Made by a program: the position numbers and the translations under genes. Below, in pieces: positions 5,244 through 22,838 of a stretch of 34,866 nt of DNA (its first letter is position 1; each line of letters opens with the position of its first letter). The stretch lies in IMG/VR virus record IMGVR_UViG_3300045988_063005, positions 1-34,866 of that record. One strand, 5' to 3'. Source of the stretch: a virus. A model generated the notes under the pieces. It worked only from the letters and a program-made list of their open reading frames with translations. It was not told the DNA's origin and did not search any database.

Positions 5244-5306
5244 GGCCTAAATAGCTATCTAAACAGTACAACACACTGAAAGATAGCTATTTAGGCCTAT
5301 TTTTTA
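5244..5306 (+). terminator. Strong rho-independent terminator closing the late operon
   Basis: Perfect 17-bp stem ggcctaaatagctatct (5244-5260) / agatagctatttaggcc (5281-5297), 20-nt loop, then tattttttag. Preceded by GTTAATAAGG. Confidence 0.9.
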
Positions 5307-5512
5307 GTTACCTTATTCTATTTTCCCCTAACTTTATTTATAAATCTTATTTCTATATTATAAATACCCTATATGCCCTACAACCTATTGTAGAGGGGGT
5401 ACTACTCTCTATAAAAATGAACATACTTTTTTTGATTAATCTTATATAGATTCACAATAAGGTAACTTTTTTCATATATTAAAAAGCTGATTTTCAAGTG
5501 ATTGTACTATAA
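5300..5512. repeat. Inverted-repeat partner A (matches reverse complement of 22648..22838)
   Basis: Hand alignment: tttttagttaccttattctattttcccctaactttat vs rc ttttttcgttgccttattctgattccctataactttat. Also gctgattttcaagtgattgtactat vs rc gctgattttgatatgattgtactat. Block order is colinear. Confidence 0.75.
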
Positions 5513-5613
5513 ATATTCCCGACTGTTAATGAATGGTTTGGTATTTAAAGTATCTAACTACCTGATTTGCTGCGATTTGATAAGTTTTTATAGTTAATTC
5601 TTAGTTAATCAAT

Positions 5614-5653
5614 GTTAATCGCTTTGCCACCTCAAAATAACCCCCTATATTTG
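5614..5653 (+). promoter_or_regulatory. Early promoter, class 1 variant (GTTAAT-N26-TATATTTG)
   Basis: TAnnTTTG box at 5646-5653. Three GTTAAT boxes at 5593, 5603 and 5614 with ~10-11 bp spacing, plus one at 5524. Confidence 0.65.
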
Positions 5654-5775
5654 CATCACGTTCAAAGGGAAACATTTCCCAACGTAAGAAATGAAACGGG
5701 CAGTATCCACATAGCACCGTACCAAAGTGGAAGAAATGAATAGGAGATTTGGATACGAAAGAAAAGGATTTGATT

Positions 5776-5970
5776 ATGGTTGAGCAGATAGTTGACGGTA
5801 TGTTTACTATTACATCATTCCGCTTGTTTTACGGCGATGAAAGTTCTATTTACAATCGTACGTTTGAACGCATAGACTTTAACGGACATTTTGAATATTA
5901 TTCGGTTGAGGGGAACGCATTTTATACACTCAAAGAGGTATTCAACTACCTTATGACTAAAGAATGTTAA
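5776..5970 (+). CDS. Hypothetical early protein
   Basis: First sizeable ORF after the early promoter. ATG at 5776 preferred over the TTG at 5749 given in the track. Confidence 0.5.
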   Translation: MVEQIVDGMFTITSFRLFYGDESSIYNRTFERIDFNGHFEYYSVEGNAFYTLKEVFNYLMTKEC

Positions 5971-5997
5971 ACGCTAAACATTTTCGGTTCGCGTAAC

Positions 5998-6015
5998 GTT
6001 TATACAGTATAACAA
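5998..6015 (+). promoter_or_regulatory. Class 2 cassette (GTTTATAcAGTATAACAA + A-rich leader)
   Basis: Same spacing to the ATG (35 nt) and same leader as class 1, but TTTG is replaced by AGTA. Preceded by the hairpin gtta-aa-cgc...gcg-taac. Confidence 0.45.
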
Positions 6016-6032
6016 TTTAAAAACAAAAGATT

Positions 6033-6206
6033 ATGAAAGCGAAAGAATTTATCTACAAAGAAGTTGAGAACTATTTAAAGAGTAACATGAGTGCTAACCG
6101 TTTTTCCGTAGTGGCGATTGCCGAGGATATGCCGACCTTTGACGGGTTTATTATCCCCCTACTATTTTCAGATGTTAGAGGGCGTGCAATTCCCCGTAGA
6201 TATTGA
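6033..6206 (+). CDS. Small early protein, 57 codons (possibly the 5' part of a frameshifted 93-aa gene)
   Basis: ATG sits exactly behind the canonical leader aaaaacaaaagattATGaaa. Below the track length cutoff. Confidence 0.5.
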   Translation: MKAKEFIYKEVENYLKSNMSANRFSVVAIAEDMPTFDGFIIPLLFSDVRGRAIPRRY

Positions 6207-6312
6207 AGACCTATATATCAATTCAGAGGACTACGAAGAGCAGTACAACGAGATTGCGACCCTGTTAGCGTCTAAACTCATGAGATTAGGAGCAAATCAA
6301 GCATTAAACTAA
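6172..6312 (+). CDS. Small acidic ORF in the +1 frame (separate gene or 3' part of 6033 gene)
   Basis: Track ORF 6118..6312. First ATG at 6172. Overlaps the 6033 ORF, and the two frames meet at the C5 run 6155-6159. Confidence 0.35.
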   Translation: MLEGVQFPVDIEDLYINSEDYEEQYNEIATLLASKLMRLGANQALN

Positions 6313-6327
6313 AAACCAAATAGAGAT

Positions 6328-7464
6328 ATGAAAACAATTGAATTAATCGCAGAAATGCAGAAGAACTTAACGGCCCTAAAAGAGCAACAAGTAAACGAAG
6401 TGTCAGAACTCGAAGCGTACAAAGCTAAGCAGCGAGAAAAGGTTAAGCAGTTAGAAACATCTATTTTAAGCGCGCTGGCGGCATTCTTGCATGAGGACGA
6501 AGTAACTGCACCCGCGTCGGTAGAAAGTCCCGTAGAGGACGCGGAAACGACATCAGCGGAAGCAGAAGCCGCCTTAGAGCAGGCAAAATCACTCGCGGAG
6601 AAAGAAGCCGCAGAGAAAAAACGTAAAGCCGATATTGCGGAAGCGAAAGCACTGGCAGCTAAAGCTAAAGCCGAGCAGGAAGCAAACGGACGGAAAGAAC
6701 TTTCAGCAGCAGCGGAAAAGGCTCTGAAAGAAGCTGCCGACCGTAAAGCCGCAGAAGATGCAGCTAAAGAAGCAGCAGCTAAAGAAGCAGCAGCTAAAGA
6801 GGCAGCAGCTAAAGAAGCAGCAGCTAAAGAGGCAGCAGCTAAAGAAGCAGCAGCTAAAGAAGCAGCAGCTAAAGAGGCAGCAGCTAAAGAAGCGGCAGCT
6901 AAAGAAGCAGCCGAACCTACGGGCGATGATTCCAAATTGGAAAAGCTATTAGATAAGTACCAGCACCCAATCACGTTGCGCGCTATTGAAAACTTGAAAG
7001 CAAACGGACACGAGGCTATGCTGAAGCCGTCTCGTAATAAAATGGGCTGGTTTTGTAGAAGCGTAGAGGCTAATAAACTGATATTAGACGAGACCGAGCG
7101 CATTATAGCAGAGGAACAGAAAGCCCTCTTTGCAGACGGCTCGGGCGCAGAACAGCATCTTAAGGAAATCGGCGCGTTCGCAATGGCGAGAAAGAAAGCG
7201 AGTACGTTCGGCCGTCAGTCGGCTATCATGGATAAGTTCCCCGTAACATTAGACGGAATAGATAAGAGCCAGCACATGGAAAAACTTGGAACAGCAGCCC
7301 GTATGTGTATGCTTGGTAAGTTATTCAGTTCAGACCAATTTAAGGAGTATTTAGAGCCCTACGGACTTACTTCTATGGCACAGCTCCCAATTGACAAGGT
7401 TAATGAGTTTTACCAGCACATGCTAACTTCATGTATGTATAACGTTGATAAAGAACAAGACTAA
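6328..7464 (+). CDS. Coiled-coil / single-helix protein with (AAKEA)x10 repeat and globular C-terminal domain, function unknown
   Basis: 378-aa ORF. The N-terminal half is A/E/K-rich with a perfect tandem repeat and the C-terminal ~190 aa are non-repetitive. Sits directly upstream of the nuclease with a TAATG overlap. Confidence 0.7.
   Translation: MKTIELIAEMQKNLTALKEQQVNEVSELEAYKAKQREKVKQLETSILSALAAFLHEDEVTAPASVESPVEDAETTSAEAEAALEQAKSLAEKEAAEKKRKADIAEAKALAAKAKAEQEANGRKELSAAAEKALKEAADRKAAEDAAKEAAAKEAAAKEAAAKEAAAKEAAAKEAAAKEAAAKEAAAKEAAAKEAAEPTGDDSKLEKLLDKYQHPITLRAIENLKANGHEAMLKPSRNKMGWFCRSVEANKLILDETERIIAEEQKALFADGSGAEQHLKEIGAFAMARKKASTFGRQSAIMDKFPVTLDGIDKSQHMEKLGTAARMCMLGKLFSSDQFKEYLEPYGLTSMAQLPIDKVNEFYQHMLTSCMYNVDKEQD
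6760..6909 (+). repeat. Tandem repeat, 15 bp x 10 (gcagctaaagaRgcR) encoding AAKEA x10
   Basis: Counted directly: 10 in-frame units differing only at synonymous gaa/gag and gca/gcg positions. Confidence 0.95.
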
Positions 7465-8651
7465 TGGAAGAAAAAGTGATAGACCACACAAGTAGGGAAC
7501 ACGCCCTACTTTCCCCGAGTAGTTCACACCGTTGGCTGGTTTGTACACCAAGTGCACGCCTGGAAGATAAGTACGGCGAGGCAAACGGAAGCAGTAGAGC
7601 GTCCGAAGAGGGTACAGTAGCGCACGAGCTGGCAGAAGCCATTCTACAACAGTATCTAAAGGGTGATTTTATGCTATTCATTGACGAGCCTGTAATACCC
7701 AAAGAGATAGCAGAAAGCGAATATTATAGCACCGAGATGCTTAACTATGTACTGGAATACGTTCTTATGTGTGTTAACATCTACGAAAGCTATGAAAAGG
7801 CCGAAATGATTATAGAGGGCAAATTTGATTTAGCAATGTACGCTAAAGAATGTTTCGGTAGTTGCGATTGCGCTATAATAGCAGAAGAAGAGGTGCACAT
7901 CGTAGACCTTAAGTATGGCAAGGGCGTACAGGTTGAGGCCGAGAACAACCCGCAGTTGAAAATGTATGCACTTGGTGCTATCCGTTCATTGCCGCCCGAT
8001 ACACAGTCTAAAATTAAAACAGTGCACATGTCTATCGGGCAGGTACGATTAGGTCACATGCCAACGTTTACCATGTCACATGCTGATTTAACGCACTGGG
8101 CTATTCACGAGTTAAGGCCAAAAGCTACTTTAGCGTTCGCAGGCGAGGGAAAGACCGTAGCAGGCGAGCACTGTAAATTCTGTAAATTCAAGGCACAATG
8201 CAGGGCACAAAAGGACGCGCTATTAGCCGAGTTCGATAACCACGAGGATGCCAACAAACTAACGAATGACGAGATAGGCGACATACTTAACAAGTCGGAT
8301 ATGTTCATCTCTTGGCTCGAGGCGGTAAAAATGCACGCACTAAGTGCAATTAATAAGGGTGAGGCGGTAAAAGGCTGGAAACTCGTAGAGGGAAGAAGTG
8401 TACGCGTAATATCCGACCCCGATAAGGCCGTAGAGACGCTTTCGAACGCCTTGAACGTTGAACCCGATACATTCTATAACAAAAAGATTAAGGGCATAGG
8501 CGACCTTGAAAAGATTGTTGGTAAAAAGCGGTTGGCATTATTGCTTGACGGCAATATAGTGAAGCCCGCAGGAGCGCCCACACTTGCAAAGGAAAGCGAT
8601 AAAAGGGCGGCAATCAGTTCAGCCCTTGATGATTTCGAGGAAACTTCATAA
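7464..8651 (+). CDS. PD-(D/E)XK exonuclease, Cas4/RecB-like (DUF2800-like)
   Basis: N-terminal LLSPSSSHRWLVCTPS. Core CDCAII...VHIVDLKYGKG...NPQLKMYALG. C-terminal CKFCKFKAQC, which with the N-terminal Cys gives the Cas4-type Fe-S Cys set. Confidence 0.85.
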   Translation: MEEKVIDHTSREHALLSPSSSHRWLVCTPSARLEDKYGEANGSSRASEEGTVAHELAEAILQQYLKGDFMLFIDEPVIPKEIAESEYYSTEMLNYVLEYVLMCVNIYESYEKAEMIIEGKFDLAMYAKECFGSCDCAIIAEEEVHIVDLKYGKGVQVEAENNPQLKMYALGAIRSLPPDTQSKIKTVHMSIGQVRLGHMPTFTMSHADLTHWAIHELRPKATLAFAGEGKTVAGEHCKFCKFKAQCRAQKDALLAEFDNHEDANKLTNDEIGDILNKSDMFISWLEAVKMHALSAINKGEAVKGWKLVEGRSVRVISDPDKAVETLSNALNVEPDTFYNKKIKGIGDLEKIVGKKRLALLLDGNIVKPAGAPTLAKESDKRAAISSALDDFEETS

Positions 8652-8656
8652 AGAAT

Positions 8657-8698
8657 ATTAACGAATGAACCAACGTATTAGATAAAGCGTTATATTTG
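8657..8698 (+). promoter_or_regulatory. Early promoter, class 1 (aTTAAC-N28-TATATTTG, 26-nt leader to ATG)
   Basis: Counted spacing: TTAAC ends at 8662, N28 is 8663-8690, box is 8691-8698, ATG at 8725. Confidence 0.7.
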
Positions 8699-8724
8699 CA
8701 TCAACGAATTAAAAACAAAGAATT

Positions 8725-8997
8725 ATGAAAACTAACAAAGGTATTTTATCGGACGAAGAATTGAAAGAACGTGCAGGTTTTTGGAACAAAAAACAGTTCC
8801 GCACATGGACTAAAAAGGAAATGAACCGCGATGCAGCGAAAATGCAAAAGATATTGGCGGCTATCAAGGACTTAACATTAGAAGAAATCTATGCAGAGCG
8901 AAAGAAGTACCGAGGCTCTTTGCGCTGTGCACCCCTGAAAGATATAGAATACGCTATTTCGATAGCCCCAAAAACTTTTAGAGTTAAACAAGGTTAA
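8725..8997 (+). CDS. Hypothetical basic protein
   Basis: ORF behind a class 1 promoter/leader. Its stop TAA lies inside the next GTTAAC box. Confidence 0.6.
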   Translation: MKTNKGILSDEELKERAGFWNKKQFRTWTKKEMNRDAAKMQKILAAIKDLTLEEIYAERKKYRGSLRCAPLKDIEYAISIAPKTFRVKQG

Positions 8998-9034
8998 CAG
9001 AATGAACAACCTACCGATTTAATTGTTATATTTG
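8993..9034 (+). promoter_or_regulatory. Early promoter, class 1 (GTTAAC-N28-TATATTTG)
   Basis: GTTAAC 8993-8998, box 9027-9034, ATG 9061 (26-nt leader). Confidence 0.7.
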
Positions 9035-9060
9035 CATCGCCTAATTAAAAACATAGAATT

Positions 9061-9282
9061 ATGAAAAAAGAGTATTTTAGCTTAGTAGAAATGGTAGACC
9101 GCGAGAACGGAGAACAATTTGATTTCACATTGGAAATCGGGCTGGAAGAAATAGAAATGCGCTTTATCTCCGTATCGGAGTTCCTTAATGATGTTATTTA
9201 TTTGCTACTGAACTACGATACGGATAAGTACATATTAATATTGGAAGATGATGCAAAAAGGATAATGGTAGAGGTTGAATAA
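9061..9282 (+). CDS. Small highly acidic protein, function unknown
   Basis: 73 aa. By my count 19 D/E versus 7 K/R. Has its own promoter. Confidence 0.6.
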   Translation: MKKEYFSLVEMVDRENGEQFDFTLEIGLEEIEMRFISVSEFLNDVIYLLLNYDTDKYILILEDDAKRIMVEVE

Positions 9283-9290
9283 TAAAAGAT

Positions 9291-9332
9291 GTTAATCAAA
9301 TGAACAAAATCAAGTTTCATTTGTTATTTATA
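9291..9332 (+). promoter_or_regulatory. Class 1-like promoter with degenerate box (GTTAAT-N28-TATTTATA)
   Basis: Same N28 spacing and the aatgaacaa core, but the -7 box lacks TTTG. Longer 56-nt leader to ATG 9389. Confidence 0.4.
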
Positions 9333-9388
9333 GAACAAAAACGGAAAGTCTGAACCGATTAGAGGACAAAAAGAAAAACAAAGTTATT

Positions 9389-9931
9389 ATGAAAGCAATG
9401 GTTAAAAACGTGAGATTAAGCTATGTACGTGTATTTGAAGCAGCCCAAGTGAATGGAGTAGGTGAGGCAAATTACAGTGTATGTCTACTCATCCCGAAAG
9501 GCAGCCCTGAAGCGGCAAAACTGAAACAAGAAATTCAAGCAGTAGCCGAGGAAATGAAAACGAAGTTCCCAAAACTTAAGGGTCAGATGCCGAAGATGTG
9601 GGGCAACCCGCTAAGAGACGGTGACGAAGAAAAAGACGGTGCCGAATACCAAGGTATGTACTTTATCAACGCAAAGCGCAAAGAGAAACATGGCGCACCG
9701 CTCGTTATCAACGGAGCAAAGCAGTACATCACCGAAAAAGAAGAACTGTACAGCGGTTGTTATGGTAATGTCTCTATCTCGTTGTTCCCTTATGAGTTCA
9801 CAGGTAAATACGGTGTAGGTGTAGGACTTAATGCCATTCAAAAGACAAAAGACGGCGAGCGCTTGGACGGCGGTGCATCTATTGACGACTTCGATTTCGA
9901 AGATGATTCGGACATGAACCTATTTAACTAA
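9389..9931 (+). CDS. Single-stranded DNA-binding protein, DUF2815-like
   Basis: VRLSYVRVFEA...YSVCLLIPKG resembles the DUF2815 N-terminus. Acidic C-terminal tail DDFDFEDDSDMNLFN is typical of SSB tails. Confidence 0.75.
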   Translation: MKAMVKNVRLSYVRVFEAAQVNGVGEANYSVCLLIPKGSPEAAKLKQEIQAVAEEMKTKFPKLKGQMPKMWGNPLRDGDEEKDGAEYQGMYFINAKRKEKHGAPLVINGAKQYITEKEELYSGCYGNVSISLFPYEFTGKYGVGVGLNAIQKTKDGERLDGGASIDDFDFEDDSDMNLFN

Positions 9932-9950
9932 TCAGCAAAAAAAAGTATTA

Positions 9951-11105
9951 ATGAGTAATAACAGACGGGGCGTAAAAACCCCGTCACAAAGTAAAAAAAT
10001 GGGAAAATCAGATAGCTACATTAACGAAAAAGGTGTTAGAATTTCAAAGGCAACAGGAAAGCCCGTAAAGAGGTACACAAAACGAAATAAAGAATACTGG
10101 GCTGCGCGAATGGGCGGAACGTTTATTGTTCAGAACGCGCAGCAACCAACCGTAGAGGCGAACCCCTTAATAGAGGAACTTCAAAGCCTGTACAGTGATG
10201 AAGAAATACAGGGAATTATTGGCCTAAAGAAAGACAGCGCACCCGTAGAACTCGTTGAGATACCGAACAAGAAGAAAAGCGAACTGGACGAGGGAAACAC
10301 AGGGTTTTTAATTGCATCTGATTGGCACGCTGATGAGGTTGTTAAGGCTTCCACTGTATTAGGTAAGAACGAGTACAACAAGGATATTGCCGAACAGCGT
10401 ATAAAAAACTTCTTCGCGAATGCTGTCTACATGATTAAGAAGAAACCCGTAGATAATTTGGTAGTCGGCTTGATTGGCGATATGATTGGCGGATACATTC
10501 ATGACGAGCTGGCACAGACAAACAGCATGTCGCCAATGCAGGGTGTTAGTTTCGTTAAATCCTTGATTATTTCAGGCTTGAAAAAGATACATGACGAGCT
10601 GCCCGATTTGCAACAAATCACTATCGTAGGTATATGCGGTAATCATTCGCGTACAACTCGGAAGATGCAGTTTAGCAACGGCTTCGCAATGAACCATGAA
10701 TATTTCATGTATAAGGATATTGAACAGACCTTAACTCTTATGGGGCTAACTAAGTTTAAATTCGTTATTCCTGAAAGTGAGTTCGCCTATTTAGATGTCT
10801 ACGGAAAGAAAATTTTGTTCTGTCATGGGCACCAGTTTAGGAGTGCGGGCGGTATCGGAGGTATATACCCGAGTATGTTTAAGTGGTATGCAAAAATGAA
10901 CCAAACCATACAGATAGACAAGGCGTTTATAGGCCATTACCACGCATCTATCTATACTAAAGAGGTCTGTGTAAACGGCTCGTTAAAAGGCTATGACGCA
11001 TTCGCAATGGGCAAGGGACTGGCCTATGAAGTGCCCCAACAGACATACGTAATTTTGAATGAGAAGCGCGGGTTTATTTTCTACTCACCCGTTTTCGCTG
11101 ACTAA
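9951..11105 (+). CDS. Calcineurin-like metallophosphoesterase (putative nuclease/phosphatase)
   Basis: Ordered motifs SDWHAD, GDMIGG, GNHSR, CHGHQF and GHYH match the DxH / GD / GNH / H / GH.H set. Confidence 0.75.
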   Translation: MSNNRRGVKTPSQSKKMGKSDSYINEKGVRISKATGKPVKRYTKRNKEYWAARMGGTFIVQNAQQPTVEANPLIEELQSLYSDEEIQGIIGLKKDSAPVELVEIPNKKKSELDEGNTGFLIASDWHADEVVKASTVLGKNEYNKDIAEQRIKNFFANAVYMIKKKPVDNLVVGLIGDMIGGYIHDELAQTNSMSPMQGVSFVKSLIISGLKKIHDELPDLQQITIVGICGNHSRTTRKMQFSNGFAMNHEYFMYKDIEQTLTLMGLTKFKFVIPESEFAYLDVYGKKILFCHGHQFRSAGGIGGIYPSMFKWYAKMNQTIQIDKAFIGHYHASIYTKEVCVNGSLKGYDAFAMGKGLAYEVPQQTYVILNEKRGFIFYSPVFAD

Positions 11106-11115
11106 CTAATAGACC

Positions 11116-11157
11116 CCCCTTATTTGTTAACAATATACAAATAAGGGGCTTTTCTTT
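11116..11157 (+). terminator. Rho-independent terminator
   Basis: Perfect 12-bp stem ccccttatttgt / acaaataagggg, 9-nt loop, then cttttctttg. Confidence 0.85.
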
Positions 11158-11178
11158 GTTTATCTCAAACCTTTACCC

Positions 11179-11186
11179 TATCTTTG
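11179..11186 (+). promoter_or_regulatory. TAnnTTTG -7 box (TATCTTTG) upstream of the polymerase gene
   Basis: Follows the terminator. 39-nt A/T-rich leader to ATG 11226. Confidence 0.55.
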
Positions 11187-11225
11187 TCGTTATAATTATT
11201 AGAAACCAATAAAAACTATATAAGT

Positions 11226-13241
11226 ATGAAACATTTATTTATCGACTTCGAAACATATTCGGATGTAGACATTAAGAGTAGCGGAAATTACAAGTATTCT
11301 GAGAGTGACAATTTCGAAATAATGTTGTGTGGCTACATGTGGGATACCGACACAAGGGTATCACTCATCGACCTAACCAAAGCTGACGGGTATGGTGAGT
11401 TTATGAAGCTGTTCCGAGAAGTAGCCGAGGACGAGGATACTACGATAGTCGCCCACAATGCCACGTTTGAGCGCGTCTGCTTAATGAACTACGGAATAAA
11501 CATAAGTCCTATGCGCTTCTTCTGTACCGCCAATATGGCGCTCTATTGTGGCCTACCCGCTTCACTTGACGCGGTATCTCAGATACTAAACCTTTCCGAT
11601 AAGAAGTTAGGTACGGGTAAAGCATTGATACGATTTTTCTCTGTTCCATGCAAGCCGACAAAGACGAACGGCATGCAGACCCGCAATCGTTCAGTAGACT
11701 ACCCCGAGAAATGGGAAGAGTTTAAAACTTACTTAGAATATGATGTTCTGTCGGAAAAGGAGATATTTGCAAAACTATCGGTTTTTGAGTTCCCACAGAG
11801 CGAGCAACTTATATATGCAGCCGACCAACGTATAAACGACTACGGCATATTAGCCGATGTCAAGTTTGCAGAACAAGCCGCGCTACTGGATGCGCAGCAC
11901 AAAGAAAAATTAGAGAATGAAGCACTAACCAAGTACGGGATAACATCCCTTAAATCAATGCCACAACTTAAGGACTTTATATTTGATAACACAGGCGTTG
12001 AAGTTACCACTTTGATAAAGGCAGAATTGCCTAATGTAGTCGCTAAAATAAAAGCGTCAACTATGCCCGAGGAAAAGAAGCAAGCGGCTTTAGACGTACT
12101 TTCCATGCGCGTAGAGGTCGGTAAAACTTCGAATGCTAAATATACCGCGATACTTAATTGCGTTGGAAAGGGAAACCGAATACGCGGCCTATTCCGTTAT
12201 TACGGTGCGTCTCGTACTGGCCGTTGGGCTGGTCGCTTGGTACAGTTGCAGAACCTACCGCAAAACCATTTAGAAGACCTTGATAGCCCGCGGGAACTCG
12301 TTAAGCGCGGTGAGTTCGAAGCTATGGGCCTGTTTTACGAGAAGCCGACACATGTTATATCGCAGCTTATACGCACCGCCTTTATTGCGCCTGAGGGCTA
12401 TACGTATTCCGTAGCTGACTTTTCCGCGATTGAAGCGCGTGTAATCGCGTGGGTTGCTAATGAGAAATGGCGGTTAGAATTGTTCAAGGACCCGCACAGC
12501 GATATATATTGCGCGTCAGCCTCTAAAATGTTCGGCGTGCCTGTTCATAAAGGGGATGAATTAAGACAGCGCGGAAAGGTTGCCGAACTCGCACTTGGAT
12601 ACGGTGGCGGTATTAACGCACTCACCACAATGGACACTAAGAAAGCGTTAAAAGAAGAAGAAAAACCCGAAATTTTGTATAAATGGAGAGAAGCTAATAA
12701 AAAAATCGTATCTTTGTGGAAGTCTTTAGAAAACGCTGCAAAAACTTGCATAGGTACACGTAGACCAGTAGTCTACACAATAACAGAAAAGGCGCAAATT
12801 GTTTTTAATTATGAATTTGGTGCAATGACTGTTAAATTACCAAGCGGCCGAAAACTTTTCTACCCGTCCGCGCGTTTATCAAGAAGAACCATAACAACGG
12901 CATCCGATTCATTCGAGGTGCAGGATATTAGTTATAAGGGACAAAACCAAATTACGGGGAAGTGGGAAACACTCCACACGTATGGCGGTAAACTAACGGA
13001 GAACATTGTACAAGCTATTAGCCGCGATTTGCTGGCGCAGGCGATATTCAATGTTTTTGATATGGGTTATAATATCGTGTTGCATGTGCATGATGAGATA
13101 GCCGCCGAGATACCGAAAGACGGTAACGAGGAAAACGTACTGAATGATATGTGCGTAGCAATGGCACAAGCGCCCGATTGGGCCGGGGGTATTGCGCTAC
13201 GTGCCGCAGGATATTTAACTGATTATTACAAAAAGGATTAG
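11226..13241 (+). CDS. polA: Family A DNA polymerase with N-terminal 3'-5' exonuclease
   Basis: Exo motifs FIDFETYS, HNATFERVCL and YLEYDVL. Pol motif A DFSAIEARV, motif B RQRGKVAELALGYGGG, motif C VHDEI. Confidence 0.92.
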   Translation: MKHLFIDFETYSDVDIKSSGNYKYSESDNFEIMLCGYMWDTDTRVSLIDLTKADGYGEFMKLFREVAEDEDTTIVAHNATFERVCLMNYGINISPMRFFCTANMALYCGLPASLDAVSQILNLSDKKLGTGKALIRFFSVPCKPTKTNGMQTRNRSVDYPEKWEEFKTYLEYDVLSEKEIFAKLSVFEFPQSEQLIYAADQRINDYGILADVKFAEQAALLDAQHKEKLENEALTKYGITSLKSMPQLKDFIFDNTGVEVTTLIKAELPNVVAKIKASTMPEEKKQAALDVLSMRVEVGKTSNAKYTAILNCVGKGNRIRGLFRYYGASRTGRWAGRLVQLQNLPQNHLEDLDSPRELVKRGEFEAMGLFYEKPTHVISQLIRTAFIAPEGYTYSVADFSAIEARVIAWVANEKWRLELFKDPHSDIYCASASKMFGVPVHKGDELRQRGKVAELALGYGGGINALTTMDTKKALKEEEKPEILYKWREANKKIVSLWKSLENAAKTCIGTRRPVVYTITEKAQIVFNYEFGAMTVKLPSGRKLFYPSARLSRRTITTASDSFEVQDISYKGQNQITGKWETLHTYGGKLTENIVQAISRDLLAQAIFNVFDMGYNIVLHVHDEIAAEIPKDGNEENVLNDMCVAMAQAPDWAGGIALRAAGYLTDYYKKD

Positions 13242-16457: not shown

Positions 16458-16476
16458 ACCAAATCAATTTATAAAC

Positions 16477-16495
16477 GTTTATATAGTATCAACAA
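16477..16495 (+). promoter_or_regulatory. Class 2 cassette (GTTTATATAGTATCAACAA)
   Basis: 36 nt to ATG 16513. Embedded 12-bp palindrome ATAAACGTTTAT. Confidence 0.45.
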
Positions 16496-16512
16496 TTTAA
16501 AAACAAAGAGTT

Positions 16513-16698: not shown

Positions 16699-16702
16699 AG
16701 CC

Positions 16703-16864
16703 ATGATTGAGATACTGAAAGTTAGATACAAGAAACGCGGGGGGTGGGATACCTTTCTACTTTCGGAAAAGCAAATCTTCCCAACAGTGGAGAAAGCAAG
16801 GGAATATTTTAAAGAAAAGTTAGAAACAAATAAAGTAGTTTTGTATTATGCAGAAAAATTATAA
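16703..16864 (+). CDS. Small hypothetical protein (53 aa, below track cutoff)
   Basis: Hand translation MIEILKVRYKKRGGWDTFLL...YYAEKL fills an otherwise empty 150-bp gap and overlaps the next start. Confidence 0.45.
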   Translation: MIEILKVRYKKRGGWDTFLLSEKQIFPTVEKAREYFKEKLETNKVVLYYAEKL

Positions 16865-17108
16865 AGTGAAAAAGGTGGCAAAGCCCGAAGCCGACAACGT
16901 TCGAGCATATAACGTAGGCGCATCCAATTACGCAAAGCATAAGATTCAACCTTGGGACATTTGGTTAGAATATAAGCTTAACCCTTGGGACGCGGATATA
17001 GTCAAGCGGGTACTAAGGGATAAGCCAACGGACGGGCGAAAACTTGACTACGAGAAGATAATACATATTTGCAAAGAACGTATAAGGCAGTTAGAAAATG
17101 GAGAATGA
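16848..17108 (+). CDS. DUF3310-like protein
   Basis: NYAKHKIQPWDIWLEYKLNPWDADIVKRVLR...KLDYEKIIHICKERIRQLE resembles the conserved DUF3310 layout common in phage replication modules. Confidence 0.6.
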   Translation: MQKNYKVKKVAKPEADNVRAYNVGASNYAKHKIQPWDIWLEYKLNPWDADIVKRVLRDKPTDGRKLDYEKIIHICKERIRQLENGE

Positions 17109-17247
17109 GATTACAAGACTTTTGGATAAGCGTATTAAACTTATTAGGACTATCCGAGGAAACCCAAACCCCTCAAAGATGTACAGGGAGCTGGAGCAAT
17201 TGGATAAGCAAATTGAAAAGGCGCTGGGCAATGAAAGAGATAATTAG
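17098..17247 (+). CDS. Small hypothetical protein (49 aa, below track cutoff)
   Basis: Hand translation MENEITRLLDKRIKLIRTIRGNPNPSKMYRELEQLDKQIEKALGNERDN bridges the DUF3310 and VRR-NUC genes with overlaps. Confidence 0.4.
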   Translation: MENEITRLLDKRIKLIRTIRGNPNPSKMYRELEQLDKQIEKALGNERDN

Positions 17248-17533
17248 TGAGAAGTATTTAGAGCGCACCCTATCCGACAAGATAAACAAGGGCGGTAACG
17301 CGTGGTGCATTAAATTGCTATCCACGTTTATAAAGGGCCTGCCTGATAGGATGATACTATGCAATGGCGGATACGTTTGCTTTGCCGAGATAAAGACAAC
17401 AGGAAAGAAACCGACCGCAATACAAAAGTTTATTCATGAGCGATTGAACAATTTAGGTTTCAAAGTGTTTATAGTAGATGGCAAAGAGAGTTTAAACGAA
17501 GTATTAGAACATATTAAAAACAAATCATTATGA
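17231..17533 (+). CDS. VRR-NUC domain nuclease
   Basis: GLPDRMILCNGGYVCFAEIKTTGKKPTAIQKFIHERLNNLGFKVFIV carries the PD...E-x-K core. Start refined to the internal ATG because the upstream part of the track ORF overlaps two other genes. Confidence 0.75.
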   Translation: MKEIISEKYLERTLSDKINKGGNAWCIKLLSTFIKGLPDRMILCNGGYVCFAEIKTTGKKPTAIQKFIHERLNNLGFKVFIVDGKESLNEVLEHIKNKSL

Positions 17534-17778
17534 ACCCAAAGAAAGTAAAAAAAGAAATTGAATACAAGTTAGGATTGTATTTCGGTATTAAGAGCGGTGC
17601 GCTTGGTGTCAAAGAGGGTAATCAGTACGGGACGCTGGACGAGATTAGGGCGCAACTGGAAGAGGAAATAACCGCGGATGTGAAGTACCTTTCAATTAAG
17701 TATCTGCGTACCCCGCCACCCGAAACAGATTTTAAGAGCGTGTGTATTTATTACAAAAATCATCTAATGAACTTATAA
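17530..17778 (+). CDS. Hypothetical protein
   Basis: ATGA overlap with the VRR-NUC stop, preceded by the in-gene leader ttaaaaacaaatcattATG. Confidence 0.55.
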   Translation: MNPKKVKKEIEYKLGLYFGIKSGALGVKEGNQYGTLDEIRAQLEEEITADVKYLSIKYLRTPPPETDFKSVCIYYKNHLMNL

Positions 17779-17779
17779 A

Positions 17780-17959
17780 ATGACTAACTATGTAACTCTA
17801 AACGTGGCCTGCCAATCAGGTAAGACCGAGATAAAGATAAACGGTAAGACAGTTAAAACCGCTAAGGAGATAGAAACCGCGATTAAGAAAGTAGATTCCG
17901 CCGAACATTCGGCCCTACTTCAAAACCTATTAATGTTAGTGAGGACTTTAGAATGTTAA
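17780..17959 (+). CDS. Small hypothetical protein (59 aa, below track cutoff)
   Basis: Hand translation MTNYVTLNVACQSGKTEIKINGKTVKTAKEIETAIKKVDSAEHSALLQNLLMLVRTLEC fills the gap and overlaps the SNF2 start. Confidence 0.5.
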   Translation: MTNYVTLNVACQSGKTEIKINGKTVKTAKEIETAIKKVDSAEHSALLQNLLMLVRTLEC

Positions 17960-19341
17960 AGAGAGAACAATTGCATGCGTATCAAGAAAAGGCCGTTGAA
18001 CTTATACTTGACAATCTTAATTGCGGACTGTTCTTAGATATGGGTTTGGGTAAAACGGTTAGTACCCTGACAGCGATACAGGAACTAAGGTCAATGGGTT
18101 TCATTGACAAGGTGCTAATCATCGCCCCGAAAAAGGTCGCACAGGTAACTTGGAAAGACGAGATAAAGAACTGGGAGCATTTACAAGGTTTACGTATCTC
18201 TGTGATAGACGGAACAGCCGCGCAGCGTAAAGCTGCCATGTTGGCAGACGCTGACATATATACTGTCAGTCGCGATAACGTTGTTTGGCTTGTGGTTGAG
18301 CATGGCGGGGTAAAGTTGCCCTATGATATGGTAGTCATTGACGAGCTATCCAGTTTTAAGAACCCAGCTTCGAAGCGTTTTAAGGCGCTAAGACGCGTCC
18401 GTAAATTTATACCGCGAGTTGTAGGTCTTACTGGTACGCCTGCCCCTAACGGGCTGATAGACCTATGGTCGCAGATGTATTTAATTGACGAGGGTAAACG
18501 GCTGGGCAAAACAATCACAGGTTACCGAGATAGATTCTTTACCGCTGGTAAGCGTAATGGTGATATAGTCTATGAGTACATCCCCAAAGCACCAGCAGAG
18601 GAAACCGAAAAAAAGATAAGCGACCTGATAAAAGACATTTGTTTATCCATGAGTGCCGAGGACTATTTGAAGATGCCCGACAAGCTGATATACTATGACA
18701 AGGTAAGGCTATCAGATAAGGACATGAAAGCTTATAAGGCCTTTGAACGTGAACAGGTGTTAGAGTTTATAGAAAGTGGTGAGACCGTTACGGCCGCGTC
18801 TGCGGCTGCACTCAGCAACAAGTTACAGCAGTTTGCGAACGGCGCTATGTATGACGCAGACCGAAAGGTGTTGCAACTCCATGACGAGAAGATAGAGAAG
18901 TTAAAGGAACTCGTAGAGGCCGCGAACGGGCAACCCGTATTAGTCGCATACTCGTTCCAGCATGACCTATCTAAGATAATGGATGCACTTAAGGAGTATA
19001 AGCCCGTCAAGTTAGAGAAGCCCGAGCAGATAGCCGATTGGAACGCGGGAAAGATTAGCGTACTGATTACGCATCCAGCGTCCGCGGGTCATGGACTTAA
19101 TTTGCAAAAGGGCGGGCACATCGTGATATGGTACGGCCTTACGTGGGCGCTGGAGCTATACCAGCAGTTCAACGCGCGCTTATACCGTCAAGGACAAACG
19201 AAGCCCGTCAGCATACACCACATCATAACTGAGGGTACCGTAGATGAAAAGATAGTCCGAAGCCTTGACGGCAAGGATACTACGCAGCGCAGCTTAATGG
19301 ATGCAATCAAAGAGATTATCGAAATATATAAAAAAGGTTAA
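17953..19341 (+). CDS. SNF2/Rad54-family helicase (superfamily 2 ATPase)
   Basis: Motif I DMGLGKT, motif II VIDELS, TGTPAPN, C-terminal GHGLNLQ and QQFNARLYRQGQ. Confidence 0.9.
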   Translation: MLKREQLHAYQEKAVELILDNLNCGLFLDMGLGKTVSTLTAIQELRSMGFIDKVLIIAPKKVAQVTWKDEIKNWEHLQGLRISVIDGTAAQRKAAMLADADIYTVSRDNVVWLVVEHGGVKLPYDMVVIDELSSFKNPASKRFKALRRVRKFIPRVVGLTGTPAPNGLIDLWSQMYLIDEGKRLGKTITGYRDRFFTAGKRNGDIVYEYIPKAPAEETEKKISDLIKDICLSMSAEDYLKMPDKLIYYDKVRLSDKDMKAYKAFEREQVLEFIESGETVTAASAAALSNKLQQFANGAMYDADRKVLQLHDEKIEKLKELVEAANGQPVLVAYSFQHDLSKIMDALKEYKPVKLEKPEQIADWNAGKISVLITHPASAGHGLNLQKGGHIVIWYGLTWALELYQQFNARLYRQGQTKPVSIHHIITEGTVDEKIVRSLDGKDTTQRSLMDAIKEIIEIYKKG

Positions 19342-19378
19342 CAAAAAGAACAACTTAATGTTTTATTCGTTATCTTTG
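19337..19378 (+). promoter_or_regulatory. Class 1 promoter (GTTAAC-N28-TATCTTTG) driving the paralog array
   Basis: GTTAAC 19337-42 contains the SNF2 stop. Box 19371-78. 27-nt A-rich leader to ATG 19406. Confidence 0.65.
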
Positions 19379-19405
19379 TATTACTAATTAAAAAAAAAGA
19401 AGATT

Positions 19406-19846
19406 ATGAACGATTTAAAGGTTTTGAATTTAGAAAAGTATGTAGGGAGCCGAGTAACCACGTACGAGGTACACAACGCTTTAGTAGTTGGTTATGTAAA
19501 GAATGGTGTAAGTCTACTCATAGTGGAGCGCGAGGGCGGTTGGCGCGAGCCTGATATAAACGACGTAATATTATTAGATGGCAGGGAGGAGGAGTTTTGG
19601 TACGTAACGCTGGCCGAGATAAAGCGCATCACCCTTAAACCTACGCTCCGCGATATGGTAGGTCTCGACGTTATGTATCAAGGAAAGCCACGTAGGTGCG
19701 TAGGATACAACGAGGGCCTAAACGCCGCCATACTGCAAAAGAACGGTGGCTGGGTGAAGTTTTCCAAGGGTGATGTGATAGGTGTCCGAGAGGATTTGGA
19801 TGCGGGTTTTGAGTATGCAGATTATAACGAAGTAGAAGTATTATGA
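19406..19846 (+). CDS. Paralog-array protein 1 (two copies of the VGK..VVGY..GW..DV domain)
   Basis: Copy 1 EKYVGSRV..ALVVGYVKNG..GGWREPDINDVILL..FWYV. Copy 2 RDMVGLDV..RRCVGYNEG..GGWVKFSKGDVIGV. Confidence 0.7.
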   Translation: MNDLKVLNLEKYVGSRVTTYEVHNALVVGYVKNGVSLLIVEREGGWREPDINDVILLDGREEEFWYVTLAEIKRITLKPTLRDMVGLDVMYQGKPRRCVGYNEGLNAAILQKNGGWVKFSKGDVIGVREDLDAGFEYADYNEVEVL

Positions 19847-20067
19847 ATGCAAGGGAGAAAGATTTAGAAAAGTTCGTAGGTAAGACCATATCGGACGGCG
19901 GAAGCAAATCACTTTTTAAGTGCGTGGGCTACAATCTCATAGCAGGGCTGCTCATTACAGAGGCGAGCGAATACGGTTGGCACAGGCTTGATACAAGTGG
20001 TGTGGTATATAGAGAATGTGAAAGTTATTGGTATTTAAACCCTTTAACAGCGAGGATAGTAAAATGA
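19843..20067 (+). CDS. Paralog-array protein 2 (one domain)
   Basis: KDLEKFVGKTI..FKCVGYNLI..YGWHRLDTSGVVY..YWYL. ATGA overlap with the upstream gene. Confidence 0.7.
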   Translation: MNAREKDLEKFVGKTISDGGSKSLFKCVGYNLIAGLLITEASEYGWHRLDTSGVVYRECESYWYLNPLTARIVK

Positions 20068-20423
20068 CAGCAAAGGAAATGATAGGTTTACAGGTAAAGA
20101 CTGTAATCAAGCAAAAAGAAGTAGTAACGCGGGTAGTAGGTTTCGCGAGTGACGTTTGGGCGATTATAGCATGGGACGGCGGTTTCGCCAAAGACAAGCT
20201 AACCCCTGATGATGTGATAGTGTTCGACTGTACGGGTTACTGGTATAGAGAGGTAGACCACTTAATAGTAACAGAGGCTGAAAGATTATCGGCGGGGAAC
20301 TTGCTTAGCGAAGTCGGTACAGTGGAGACACCTCTAACGGATTACATCTACCCAGCAGTGCCCGAGGAGCTGCCAGTGTTACCGCCCGAACCCGAAGTAC
20401 CCGAATTTATTGAAGTATTATAA
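20064..20423 (+). CDS. Paralog-array protein 3 (one domain plus Pro/Glu-rich tail)
   Basis: Start refined to the ATGA overlap. KEMIGLQVKTV..TRVVGFASD..WDGGFAKDKLTPDDVIVF..YWYR. Tail PAVPEELPVLPPEPEVPE. Confidence 0.7.
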   Translation: MTAKEMIGLQVKTVIKQKEVVTRVVGFASDVWAIIAWDGGFAKDKLTPDDVIVFDCTGYWYREVDHLIVTEAERLSAGNLLSEVGTVETPLTDYIYPAVPEELPVLPPEPEVPEFIEVL

Positions 20424-20427
20424 AAGT

Positions 20428-20658
20428 ATGGAAGCAAAAGATTTAGTAGGAAAAAGGATTTGTTCAGACTATTTAGAGGACTCCCTAAACGCGCCCGCGG
20501 GGGCAGAGTTCAAGGTAGTAGGGTACACCACCTACGGGAAATGCATAGTAGACGGGGGTCTGACAGGCTGGCGCTACGTGTGCAAATACGACCGAATAGT
20601 CGAGGAGTGCGATTTCTATTTGTATCTCAGTACCAAGGATATAACCAAAGTGTTATAA
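20428..20658 (+). CDS. Paralog-array protein 4 (one domain)
   Basis: MEAKDLVGKRI..FKVVGYTTYG..TGWRYV..FYLYL. The first 23 nt are identical to the start of 20738. Confidence 0.7.
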   Translation: MEAKDLVGKRICSDYLEDSLNAPAGAEFKVVGYTTYGKCIVDGGLTGWRYVCKYDRIVEECDFYLYLSTKDITKVL

Positions 20659-20661
20659 CAA

Positions 20662-20721
20662 GTTAATAAGGCAATAGCGGCGAACCTTTTAAAGCGCCCG
20701 CTGTTTATATAGTATAACAAC
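20662..20721 (+). promoter_or_regulatory. GTTAATAAGG-hairpin plus class 2 cassette (copy 2, partner 15971..16030)
   Basis: Stem tagcgg / ccgctg with compensatory changes relative to copy 1, loop cgaaccttttaaagcgc, then GTTTATATAGTATAACAAC. 35 nt to ATG 20738. Confidence 0.55.
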
Positions 20722-20737
20722 TTAAAAACTGGATGAT

Positions 20738-21181
20738 ATGGAAGCAAAAGATTTAGTAGGTAAATGGGTAAAAGGCTGGGAGCAGACAAACCCCGAATAT
20801 GCGGATGCGCCCGCGCTGGTTGTAGGATATAACATGCATGGTTTCGCGGCGCCGAACATTATCGTAGAGAACTTGTACGGCTGGGGCTGGGAGAAGCCCT
20901 CAGGCAGCGATGTAGTTAAGATAACTTGTGAGGGTTACAGTTACGCGAACCCCGCATTAGTAACTATCTGTGATACGCCCGAGGGTGAGCTGGACTATGA
21001 TACGGACGGCCAATGTCTGAATGTGCTCATAGACCTACCGCCACAAACGACAATGTCGCAGATACGCGAATTGGAAATGGCGGGGTATAAGTTCACTCGC
21101 GATTCGGGCGGCTGGACTATAAAGAACCCTGAGGGCGCTACGGTTGGTTGGGCGGACACGTTATCAGGAGTGGAGCCATGA
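20738..21181 (+). CDS. Paralog-array protein 5 (one domain plus C-terminal extension)
   Basis: MEAKDLVGKWV..APALVVGYNMHG..YGWGWEKPSGSDVVKI..GYSY. Confidence 0.7.
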   Translation: MEAKDLVGKWVKGWEQTNPEYADAPALVVGYNMHGFAAPNIIVENLYGWGWEKPSGSDVVKITCEGYSYANPALVTICDTPEGELDYDTDGQCLNVLIDLPPQTTMSQIRELEMAGYKFTRDSGGWTIKNPEGATVGWADTLSGVEP

Positions 21182-21738
21182 GGGAAATAATAAGAATAGC
21201 CCGCCAGCGTGCGGGCGAACGGGTAGTTAAGACCTACTCAGAGGGATGCACCCTTAGTGGCTGGATAGTAGGATACGAAGATGATATGCTGGTAGTGGCG
21301 CACAACTGCGACAGGGTTAGGGGGATAACAACCCGCTGCGCAAAGAACCCTGTCCTACTGGCTGAGCCGCCTTGCAAGACGAAGCACACCATTCTAACCG
21401 CGCCGACAGGGTTACGTCCGTATGAGGATAGGAACGAGGATAACAAGTTTTACTCATGGGTCGGTCGGCATATCGGTAGGGTCGCGTTCTTTAAACCGTA
21501 CGGCCCGAAGCAGAAAGGGCTGATAGTAGGCCACAAGGACGGTATGGTAGTTATTAGGGTGATGTACACCAAGGTATCTAAGTTCGCCTGTGAGCCGGCG
21601 GGGGAAGATTACAACAGTATCCTTGACTACAACACACATAAGGCCGCAGGCAAGCTTAAAATGCTATATACGGACGTGTTGGTAAGCAAGAATGATTTGA
21701 GGTTAACAAAATTGGTAGGAATAGAAAATATATGTTAG
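21178..21738 (+). CDS. Paralog-array protein 6 (two diverged domains, weaker match)
   Basis: Start refined to the ATGA overlap. AGERVVKTY..LSGWIVGYEDDMLVV and VGRHIGRVAFF..KGLIVGHKDGMVVI keep the VG..V / (I/V)VG(Y/H) core only. Confidence 0.55.
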   Translation: MREIIRIARQRAGERVVKTYSEGCTLSGWIVGYEDDMLVVAHNCDRVRGITTRCAKNPVLLAEPPCKTKHTILTAPTGLRPYEDRNEDNKFYSWVGRHIGRVAFFKPYGPKQKGLIVGHKDGMVVIRVMYTKVSKFACEPAGEDYNSILDYNTHKAAGKLKMLYTDVLVSKNDLRLTKLVGIENIC

Positions 21739-21956
21739 TTATGTGGATAGATATTTTATTGGTTATATTGGGCATGCTGGTATTCGTTAGTTCGATTGTA
21801 CTCATACTCGGCTCTGCAATGGCAGAAGCGTTCGGCCCGAAGAACAAAGTGAGATTTATAGGTTTGTGTTTCATAAGCGGGGTGGTAGCCGCGGTCGGGT
21901 TCGTCCTATTGGCGAGCATCATTAATGGGGTGTCTAACTTAATAACGGGGGTGTGA
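21732..21956 (+). CDS. Small membrane protein (two predicted TM helices)
   Basis: 74 aa, almost entirely hydrophobic (ILLVILGMLVFVSSIVLILG and FISGVVAAVGFVLLASII). Confidence 0.6.
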   Translation: MLVMWIDILLVILGMLVFVSSIVLILGSAMAEAFGPKNKVRFIGLCFISGVVAAVGFVLLASIINGVSNLITGV

Positions 21957-21957
21957 T

Positions 21958-22365
21958 ATGGATAAAGAACGTGAGATTAGTTTTAAGGTAATCGGTGAGG
22001 CCCTGAACATTCATCAGTTCATTATATGGGAGTTCGTCCGTAGGTACGGATACGATAAGGGAATAACGAAAGACAGGAAAGGCCGCGGGGTAGTCCAGTG
22101 GCATAAGGCAAATCTTTGGATAGACAAGTTAGCTAAGTATCTGAAGTTTCAAGAGTACAGTTATAAGCAGGAAATAAACAAGGGCCAATACACCTATATA
22201 AGTCGGGAACGTTTCCAGCGCGAAAAGGAAAGTGAACAGGACGTTGAAAGGGAGTACGGCGTGAATGATAAAGCACAGGTTATACGGACTACGAAGTTTG
22301 CAAACGGGGGCGTTCAAGTATGGGTTTGGAACTGGCTAACTTATACATGGCAATTGACAAAATGA
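21958..22365 (+). CDS. Hypothetical protein, possibly DNA-binding (last gene of early block)
   Basis: N-terminal ISFKVIGEALNIHQFIIWEFVRRYG is helix-turn-helix-like by eye only. Trp-rich C-terminus. Confidence 0.4.
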   Translation: MDKEREISFKVIGEALNIHQFIIWEFVRRYGYDKGITKDRKGRGVVQWHKANLWIDKLAKYLKFQEYSYKQEINKGQYTYISRERFQREKESEQDVEREYGVNDKAQVIRTTKFANGGVQVWVWNWLTYTWQLTK

Positions 22366-22469
22366 TAGTCAAGTAAGGAGGCTCGATAGCATTTTGATAG
22401 GCCTTAAAACATAAGTAACCGCCTTTTAAAAGTGATACATATAGAGGGTTTTAGGTTACAAAGTGTCAA

Positions 22470-22507
22470 AGCGTACAGGGTAAGAACTACTTTGTACGCT
22501 TTTTTTA
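22470..22507 (+). terminator. Rho-independent terminator closing the early block
   Basis: 12-bp stem agcgtacagggt / actttgtacgct with two G-U pairs, 7-nt loop, then T7. Confidence 0.8.
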
Positions 22508-22647
22508 TGCACCCCCCCGTCAGAACGCTCAGAACGCACTATAATGTAACGTTAAATGGGGGTTATTGACTTATCAATCAAGTGATTGTGCTATTTTTTG
22601 GGGTGCTAAAAGGGCCCTGTTTTTCTTTACCATATTTGACACTCGAA

Positions 22648-22838
22648 ATAGTACAATCATATCAAAATCAGCCCTTTAATATATATTTAACGACACCTCT
22701 TAGTGAATATACATAGAAACATAGGAATGAAATTACTATCTTATTTATAGGGATATTATAGTTAATAACAGTTAAATGGAAAATAAGAGAACATTCTAAA
22801 ATAAAGTTATAGGGAATCAGAATAAGGCAACGAAAAAA
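22648..22838. repeat. Inverted-repeat partner B (reverse complement matches 5300..5512)
   Basis: See partner A. Roughly three quarters identity by hand alignment, with an ~18-nt insertion in this copy. Confidence 0.75.

Follow-up and report, generated by a model that had tools for sequence, protein, structure and literature searches.

Why should a phage whose genes all read in one direction carry, at the two boundaries of its early module, noncoding regions that resemble each other in opposite orientations? The question arises from IMGVR_UViG_3300045988_063005, an IMG/VR virus record of 34,866 nucleotides, the whole of which was analyzed and is called the window below. An earlier note on this DNA had reported that positions 5300-5512 (copy A, + strand, in island A) align colinearly with the reverse complement of positions 22648-22838 (copy B, − strand, in island B), and had held that such an inverted copy calls for a special explanation. 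The present analysis confirmed the repeat and found the same pair of elements in related phages. The comparison of these sequences leads us to propose that the two elements are iteron-type, origin-like arrays that would act in cis and be bound by the primase-helicase of the phage, i.e., a known kind of element; we hold this explanation with equal measures of belief and doubt.

The repeat and its setting

The inverted resemblance was borne out by alignment. Over the whole length of the two copies, the global alignment pairs 139 matching and 47 mismatching positions, with 32 gap columns (74.7% identity), and its score of 58 compares to 12.4 ± 6.1 for 500 composition-preserving shuffles (z = 7.5). 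The local score of the inverted copies (51) also exceeds those of dinucleotide shuffles (24.2 ± 2.8, maximum 40), that of the two window copies compared in direct orientation (29) and those obtained against each of the 13 other AT-rich intergenic regions of the window (≤26), so that shuffled-sequence controls were passed. The top two inverted repeats of the window by length are 5443-5510/22648-22715 (68 nt, 75%) and 5289-5348/22790-22849 (60 nt, 75%). The longest exact run common to both copies is 12 nt (TGATTGTACTAT), and their A+T content is 75.6% (copy A) and 74.9% (copy B) compared to 55% for the genome. A small gene common to both copies was excluded, the same frame being interrupted in copy A.

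The ends of the window (1-85 and 34782-34866) are an exact 85-bp duplicate, and the genome is therefore a circle of 34,781 bp. The contig ends of relatives lie at differing genome positions, and the more distant cultured relatives EMB1 and EMB2 are reported to be circularly permuted, EMB2 having a predicted headful (pac) packaging (PMC9584325); the duplicate is thus an assembly overlap rather than a physical terminal repeat. The only DNA-level relative of the window in the phage database is BS162P3, a lytic Bacteroides siphophage; phages of this type are lytic (PMC13432879; also PMC9584325). On the circle, the centers of the two elements (5406 and 22743) are nearly antipodal, separated by arcs of 17,337 and 17,444 bp (49.8% and 50.2% of the circumference), and a split of about 46-54% was estimated from fetched coordinates in BS162P3, BV185P1, L007, EMB1 and BU730P1. 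This placement may reflect equal module sizes only, or an ori/ter-like layout.

As the earlier note had stated for all genes, the + strand carries all the long open reading frames (ORFs). Early and replication functions span 5749-22365 and include exonucleases, a Gp2.5-like single-stranded DNA-binding protein, a family A DNA polymerase, an 819-amino-acid primase-helicase and an SNF2-type helicase. Late functions (terminase, portal, tape-measure-like protein, endolysin) span 23145 through the junction to 5231. Each copy is located between the terminator of one module and the next host-type promoter, 110-220 nt upstream of this promoter. Mapping of terminators and promoters at both islands thus corroborated the claim that the copies sit just inside both module boundaries and bracket the early/replication module.

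In island A, the late-module intrinsic terminator (5244-5304, + strand) consists of a 17-bp perfect stem (GGCCTAAATAGCTATCT, 5244-5260/5281-5297), a 20-nt loop and a T run. The early promoter (5623-5653, + strand), which is of the Bacteroides host type, has TTTG at 5623, a 19-nt spacer and TATATTTG at 5646 and lies outside the repeat. In island B, the early-module intrinsic terminator (22468-22509, + strand) has a 15-bp stem (22468-22502) followed by a T run, and the −7 box of the late promoter, TACTTTTG, is at 23068-23075 (+ strand). By eye, TACCTTTG was found at the aligned late −7 position in BS162P3 and upstream of terS in an L007-type relative. A match to the Escherichia coli-type −35/−10 promoter is present in both copies (5451-5480 on the + strand, 22707-22678 on the − strand) and was set aside, Bacteroides promoters being of another type. 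The earlier note had also pointed to aataaccccc near both copies. This word is indeed present (5635-5644 on the + strand, 22557-22566 on the − strand) but is not conserved in BS162P3, and its meaning is doubtful. GGGGGTTA flanks copy B as a direct repeat (22557-22564 and 22838-22845) and occurs once, inverted, beside the early promoter (5637-5644, − strand); three of its five near-matches in the genome fall in the islands.

Copy A contains a phage-specific box, the L-box (AGTTACCTTATTCT, 5306-5319, + strand), which has only three sites in the genome with ≤3 mismatches, all of them inside the two elements. It is followed by a core, CTAACTTTATTT (5328-5339, + strand), conserved in both copies, and by the R-box (5454-5467, − strand), an inverted copy of the L-box with one mismatch, which forms with 5307-5318 a 12-bp perfect inverted repeat around a 134-bp stretch of 74% A+T. 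Block 2 (5479-5510, + strand) is composed of the M motif TTAAAAAGCTGATTT (5479-5493) and of TGATTGTACTAT (5499-5510). The M motif reads TTAAAnnSCTGATTT, and its three exact matches in the window are all inside the islands; the arms of the late terminator hairpin resemble it. On the − strand, copy B carries GATTGTACTAT (22648-22658), the M motif (22665-22679), a degenerate R-box (around 22691-22703), the core (22799-22810) and the L-box (22819-22832). Its left edge has extra boxes on the + strand (22566-22594), the L-box-like TTGACTTAT (22566) and GATTGTGCTAT (22584), and island B has a second M motif (TTAAATGCCTGATTT, 22844-22876, + strand), which with 22647-22679 forms a 33-nt inverted repeat (25/33) bracketing 164 bp that contain the core. 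Both window copies therefore show opposed repeats about an AT-rich center: the L-box (+) and R-box (−) around 134 bp in copy A, and the M motifs (− and +) around 164 bp in copy B.

The paired element in related phages

One scan identified 47 related contigs, and siphophages of this kind, 33-37 kb in size and associated with Bacteroides and Phocaeicola, are common in human gut metagenomes, many of them being cultured; cultured relatives from Bacteroides, Phocaeicola and Parabacteroides number about 140, and HLBST001 is in culture like BS162P3. Both islands were recovered from 19 further phages, including BS162P3, four relatives from IMG/VR that were joined across their contig ends, nine contigs from metagenomes and, among cultured phages, BV185P1, BX788P2, EMB1 and BU730P1; for EMB2, only island B was recovered. 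The comparison with the islands of related phages, which the earlier note had proposed, revealed that islands A and B share a 200-280 bp element in every genome from which both were recovered. However, the inverted state is found only in the clade of the window and BS162P3, including the four IMG/VR relatives, all of which have A on the + strand and B on the − strand. Copy B is direct in the eight B. uniformis-type contigs (local scores of 126-298 compared to 25-30 for the inverted orientation, with all 29 anchor matches on the + strand), and both islands of the cultured phages BX788P2, EMB1 and BU730P1 carry the element in direct orientation. It is also direct in the cultured Phocaeicola phage BV185P1 (score of 218 compared to 35), and the core is direct in both islands of the L048-type clade. 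Orientation is thus fixed within clades, and the order and strand of the genes are identical across all clades compared. Since both copies are direct in most relatives, an inverted copy no longer calls for the special explanation that had been assumed. Judging from these comparisons, the paired element is an old and conserved feature of the family, because every clade shares it at the same two places, and its inverted state is peculiar to one clade. Furthermore, its orientation relative to the genes seems immaterial, since the second copy is inverted in one clade and direct in three others.

Outside the window/BS162P3 clade, the element consists of five to eight (up to about 12) short repeats, specific to the lineage and arrayed in both orientations about a center rich in A+T. 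The B. uniformis-type repeat is (T)GCACAG; CACAG is present seven and six times per 300 nt in the two islands of L007 compared to 0.4 expected. GACCAG is found in six and four copies in L024, TGTGCCA in five and eight copies in the L048 type, and TGTTCC/GGAACA about 12 times per island in BV185P1. The expectation for these short repeats is 0.2-0.5 per 300 nt, and no cluster of them was found elsewhere in 20-22 kb of sequence. The order in L007 is + + − −, an AT-rich stretch, + + and then −. The core has the form (A/T)ACTTTATTT in the window/BS162P3 clade and is recognizable in the L048-type clade as TAACACTTTATTT; inspection by eye suggested a looser likeness to TAAAACATTATTTTGG of the B. uniformis-type clade.

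The repeats of the two islands change together. In L024 and L030, every repeat of both copies has switched from CACAG to ACCAG (GACCAG/CTGGTC) while the A- and B-specific flanks are retained, so that the switch is not a wholesale copying of one element over the other. Likewise, the L-boxes of the window and BS162P3 are more alike within each genome (19/23 and 17/23) than between orthologues (2/23 and 7/23), and block 2 is identical at 32/38 positions within the window but at 20-22/38 between orthologues (20/38 for block 2 of copy A). By comparison, the core gives 15-19/23 in all six comparisons, and the middle of the element follows orthology. Over their whole length, the elements of the window and those of BS162P3 share 41-63% identity compared to 80-95% for the flanking genes, and relatives that are 93-95% identical in island B nonetheless bear different L-boxes. 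Boxes that are alike within a genome, differ between orthologues and change together point to sites read by a sequence-specific trans-acting factor, aided by local conversion between repeats.

Proposed origin-like arrays, their candidate binder and rival explanations

Among the readings offered by the earlier note, that of shared operator or origin sequences is the one favored by the family-wide presence of two copies, by the lineage-specific short repeats that change in concert and by the clade-dependent orientation. The arrays would constitute a duplicated replication origin of the iteron type, or else one origin accompanied by a second region to which the same initiator binds. In each of them, phage-specific boxes in both orientations would surround an AT-rich and easily melted center holding the family-conserved core; the primase-helicase would bind the boxes through its C-terminal winged-helix domain, and replication would start or stall there. 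Because its repeats run in both orientations, such an array would work either way round, which would make its orientation relative to the genes immaterial. In the ancestor of the window/BS162P3 clade, copy B would have turned round with its function unchanged, probably because the inverted boxes at its two ends recombined. Such boxes are present at both ends of copy B (22566 on the + strand and 22819-22832 on the − strand; 22647-22679 and 22844-22876), and recombination between them would flip a unit of about 250 bp and leave the genes untouched, which would account for the inverted state. For genome scanning, the lesson is that an apparent inverted copy of a regulatory region can be a bidirectional repeat array flipped in one lineage.

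The candidate trans-acting factor is the primase-helicase (13247-15706, + strand, 819 amino acids), which has VapE-like and DUF5906 domains (Pfam) and whose residues ~739-817 are predicted to form a winged helix. Its residues 403-744 match Rep1, the initiator-helicase of Staphylococcus aureus pathogenicity island 1 (SaPI1; 7PDS; phmmer, E = 2.4e-79). A protein search with the C-terminal fragment alone gave no matches, whereas the full-length query did. In the AlphaFold model of residues 620-819, the predicted local distance difference test score exceeds 92 for residues ~720-819, the topology is helix-strand-helix-helix-hairpin (winged helix), and the best Foldseek matches are chains of 7PDS (probability 1.0), followed by weak matches to winged-helix DNA-binding domains. 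Within the BS162P3 clade, five of the C-terminal differences lie at the beginning of the recognition helix or just ahead of it (778, 779, 784) or in the wing (800, 802). Across the early region, 10 substitutions are unique to L024 and L030, a number that makes the statistics of this association weak; four are in the primase-helicase, including two in its winged helix (M756T, G794R). As signs that the helicase binds the arrays, these two patterns are suggestive.

Rep proteins of SaPIs are self-loading initiator-helicases whose C-terminal winged helix binds iterons of 5-6 nt, and SaPI origins contain 6-12 iterons and an AT-rich center, with at least two iterons on each side in opposite directions (PMC9371898). 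The likeness to the window family lies in the helicase, which is a clear homologue of SaPI1 Rep1 (7PDS), is fused to a primase as in PriRep5 of SaPI5 and has a winged-helix end, and in the arrays of relatives, where 5-12 lineage-specific repeats of 5-8 nt, opposed, flank an AT-rich center (PMC9371898). However, the phages have two arrays per genome, kilobases away from the helicase gene, compared to one directly downstream of rep in SaPIs. Moreover, the carrier is a lytic siphophage rather than a satellite island, the repeats of the window clade are longer and fewer, and binding is predicted here.

SPP1 is a lytic pac-type siphovirus with its genes on one strand and two similarly organized origin regions, oriL and oriR, which are about 13 kb apart and bound by the same initiator; oriR is proposed to stall forks and to trigger concatemer synthesis (PMC6316719). 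As in SPP1, two distant regions of one genome share the same organization of repeats and AT-rich sequence in the window family, and one of the SPP1 origins is intergenic and bracketed by transcription signals. By contrast, gp38 of SPP1 is a separate origin-binding protein that acts with a loader and a DnaB-type helicase, not a self-loading helicase of superfamily 3, oriL lies inside gene 38 and the SPP1 repeats are direct. No DnaB-type helicase was detected in the replication module of the window, which includes the polymerase, the VapE/Rep-like primase-helicase and the Gp2.5-like protein. As a functional precedent for a phage with two regions of this kind, SPP1 comes closest. In a further parallel, the alpha primase-helicase of the satellite phage P4 is multifunctional, has a C-terminal DNA-binding domain and recognizes short iterons in ori and crr, two regions that differ in orientation, lie 4.5 kb apart and are both needed for one origin to fire. 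In view of their nearly antipodal placement, the two arrays may be a coupled pair instead of redundant origins, one being the origin and the other a helicase-bound fork barrier or terminus that, as suggested for oriR of SPP1, switches circle-to-circle replication to concatemer synthesis, a variant that we regard as rather improbable. The orientation of copy B would then set the polarity of the barrier, and its flip in this clade would have altered the mode of replication, a functional rather than a neutral event.

Several observations weigh against iteron-type origins with the primase-helicase as their binder. SaPI origins are directly downstream of rep, whereas here one array lies 7.7 kb upstream of the helicase gene and the other 6.9 kb downstream of it, and no repeat cluster was found after the helicase gene in relatives. 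The repeats of the window/BS162P3 clade are few and long (a 14-nt box present three times plus one degenerate copy, three exact M motifs and three copies of TGATTGTACTAT), and no clean iteron of 5-6 nt could be defined in the window and BS162P3 by k-mer enrichment (5-7-mers), A+T-rich words being dominant. Box type is not tracked by the C-terminus of the helicase in the BS162P3 clade, where three box types coexist with an identical wing and recognition helix; conversely, wing loops differ in the B. uniformis clade alongside the same CACAG repeats, and those of L024 and L030 differ from each other. A search of the BS162P3 clade for a co-varying protein found that the most variable ones are small paralogous proteins, without link to box type, and four more cultured phages all have CACAG repeats and thus provided no second specificity switch. 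The GC skew, uniformly positive, shows no polarity switch at either island, which is uninformative with all genes on one strand. Lastly, a position between terminator and promoter suits a transcriptional operator equally well.

This position is one of the arguments for arrays acting as operators for a phage transcription factor that would coordinate the early and late promoters. In lambda, OL and OR carry the same protein-binding repeats at two places, in opposite orientation and beside promoters, and their sequence co-varies with that of the binding protein. Here, both copies are directly past terminators and 110-220 nt upstream of host-type promoters, their concerted box changes imply a sequence-specific trans factor, orientation independence suits upstream binding sites, and the fast diversification of boxes among close relatives resembles immunity specificity. 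Compared to lambda, however, scans of the window phage found no repressor-like gene, and this lytic phage has many more repeats and an AT-rich center. Furthermore, no helix-turn-helix or regulator domain was found in 25 early-region proteins, i.e., nearly the whole early module (Pfam, PHROGs, NCBIfam), and the phages are lytic (PMC13432879, PMC9584325). In addition, 6-12 repeats about an AT-rich center are more typical of origins, and the helicase alone stands out among early proteins in the L024/L030 association test. Operators are therefore an unlikely explanation, if a credible one.

The other readings deal with what the inverted arrangement or the palindromic structure might mean. The earlier note had considered a leftward-transcribed RNA, i.e., elements that would be genes for a structured noncoding RNA, with copy B transcribed antisense to the end of the early operon. 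Long inverted repeats do occur within the elements (12 bp in copy A of the window, up to 39 nt in BS162P3), and their arms co-vary between phages, but the unpaired tandem boxes change along with the paired ones. Moreover, Rfam gave no match at E ≤ 1, ARAGORN detected neither a tRNA nor a tmRNA, the Bacteroides −7 motif (TAnnTTTG) is absent from the minus strand of the islands and from inside the elements, and on both strands folding is no better than that of shuffles, copy B even being worse (z-scores: copy A, −0.7 and −1.0; copy B, +1.3 and +1.6). Nor are mismatches in the long inverted repeats biased towards G.U pairs (six on the + strand and three on the − strand, besides seven non-wobble ones), whereas the terminator hairpins, used as control, have eight G.U on the + strand and none on the − strand, so that the test works; we thus find an RNA gene very hard to credit. 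Recombination joints, either an inverted repeat that flips the 17-kb early module or conserved linkers for module exchange, would fit the mosaicism of the islands: in c077023, the box of A is of type 2 and that of B of type 1, L064 bears the A-type L-box of the window in its B copy, identity to BS162P3 is only 43-51% for four of the five genes that precede island B, despite 96% for TerS and TerL, and the B element itself was flipped at some time in the past. As a working switch, joints did not hold up. Arms that share at most 12 exact bases at 75% identity are a poor substrate for homologous recombination, and the early module is inverted in none of the nine other scorable assemblies of the window/BS162P3 clade (eight distinct contigs), which show the majority form only, nor in other relatives. 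In addition, relatives mostly have direct copies, recombination across which would split the genome, and no recombinase was found among the 36 proteins scanned, a subset of the ORFs, although a host enzyme is possible. This makes joints highly improbable. As for a miniature inverted-repeat transposable element inserted twice, copy A does have 12-bp perfect terminal inverted repeats flanked by T runs and direct repeats of GGGGGTTA stand on either side of copy B (22557 and 22838). However, the similarity of A and B runs past the inverted repeats of copy A into block 2, the boundaries are inconsistent between copies, both positions are conserved across deeply diverged clades, and the block 2 pattern is unmatched in 2.9 million viral contigs and 185,579 bacterial and archaeal genomes; such an insertion is barely conceivable.

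This work provides two precise candidate origins and a candidate initiator domain for a family of Bacteroides/Phocaeicola siphophages in which, to our knowledge, origins are yet to be mapped, and the change of CACAG to ACCAG in L024 and L030 is a natural specificity swap that is directly testable. If the arrays are iteron-type origins, they could be used for phage-dependent plasmids or for origin-decoy resistance in Bacteroides, and the SaPI-type system of self-loading helicase and iterons would extend to lytic phages of another phylum.

Other features of the early and late modules

The early 5′ leader (5643-5742) is 95% identical to that of BS162P3, i.e., more conserved than the adjacent genes, and holds the hairpin GGGAAACATTTCCC and the near-consensus DnaA-box-like GTATCCACA; a regulatory function is possible. 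Upstream of early and middle genes, units of about 50-85 nt recur (5998-6049, 8645-8741, 8985-9067, 15730-15783, 16010-16066, 16473-16528, 19325-19395 and 20678-20754). One type has the Bacteroides −7 box (GTTATATTTGCATC) and another has GTTTATAnAGTATAACAA, and in both the leader AATTAAAAACAAAgaATTATG comes next. They have the appearance of promoter-leader cassettes that the early module uses repeatedly.

The third early gene (6328-7464) contains about 12 tandem 15-nt repeats (6723-6917) encoding (AAKEA)n. Its protein has weak, sub-threshold matches to histone H1-like DNA-binding proteins and is 43-52% identical to its homologues in the BS162P3 clade, compared to 85-88% for neighboring genes. 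The region 19406-21738 encodes six or seven copies of paralogous small proteins, some with double domains, that carry the motifs M.A.DLVGK, VVGY, IVD.G..GW and Y.Y, in this order. These proteins have no Pfam match and, when close relatives are compared, vary more than any others (42-84% identity); functions in host takeover or anti-defence are possible.

In the late module, the proteins of 528 and 551 amino acids (26949-30190) are 37% and 51% identical to those of BS162P3 (L001) compared to 82-96% for neighboring structural proteins, and are probably host-range determinants exchanged by recombination. The terS-terL spacer (23766-23929) is unrelated to that of BS162P3 (8-31% identity), whereas the two flanking genes are 85-90% identical in DNA. 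It contains a 26-nt inverted repeat (23777-23802/23821-23846) and resembles a replaced cassette that could be a pac-related site. Lastly, contig OMGF01000181.1 (64,546 bp; L048 and L057) carries the primase-helicase gene twice, about 32 kb apart, with identical flanking-gene coordinates in both fetched loci. A relative of about 32 kb seems to be present in it as a head-to-tail dimer, either an assembled concatemer or an assembly artefact.

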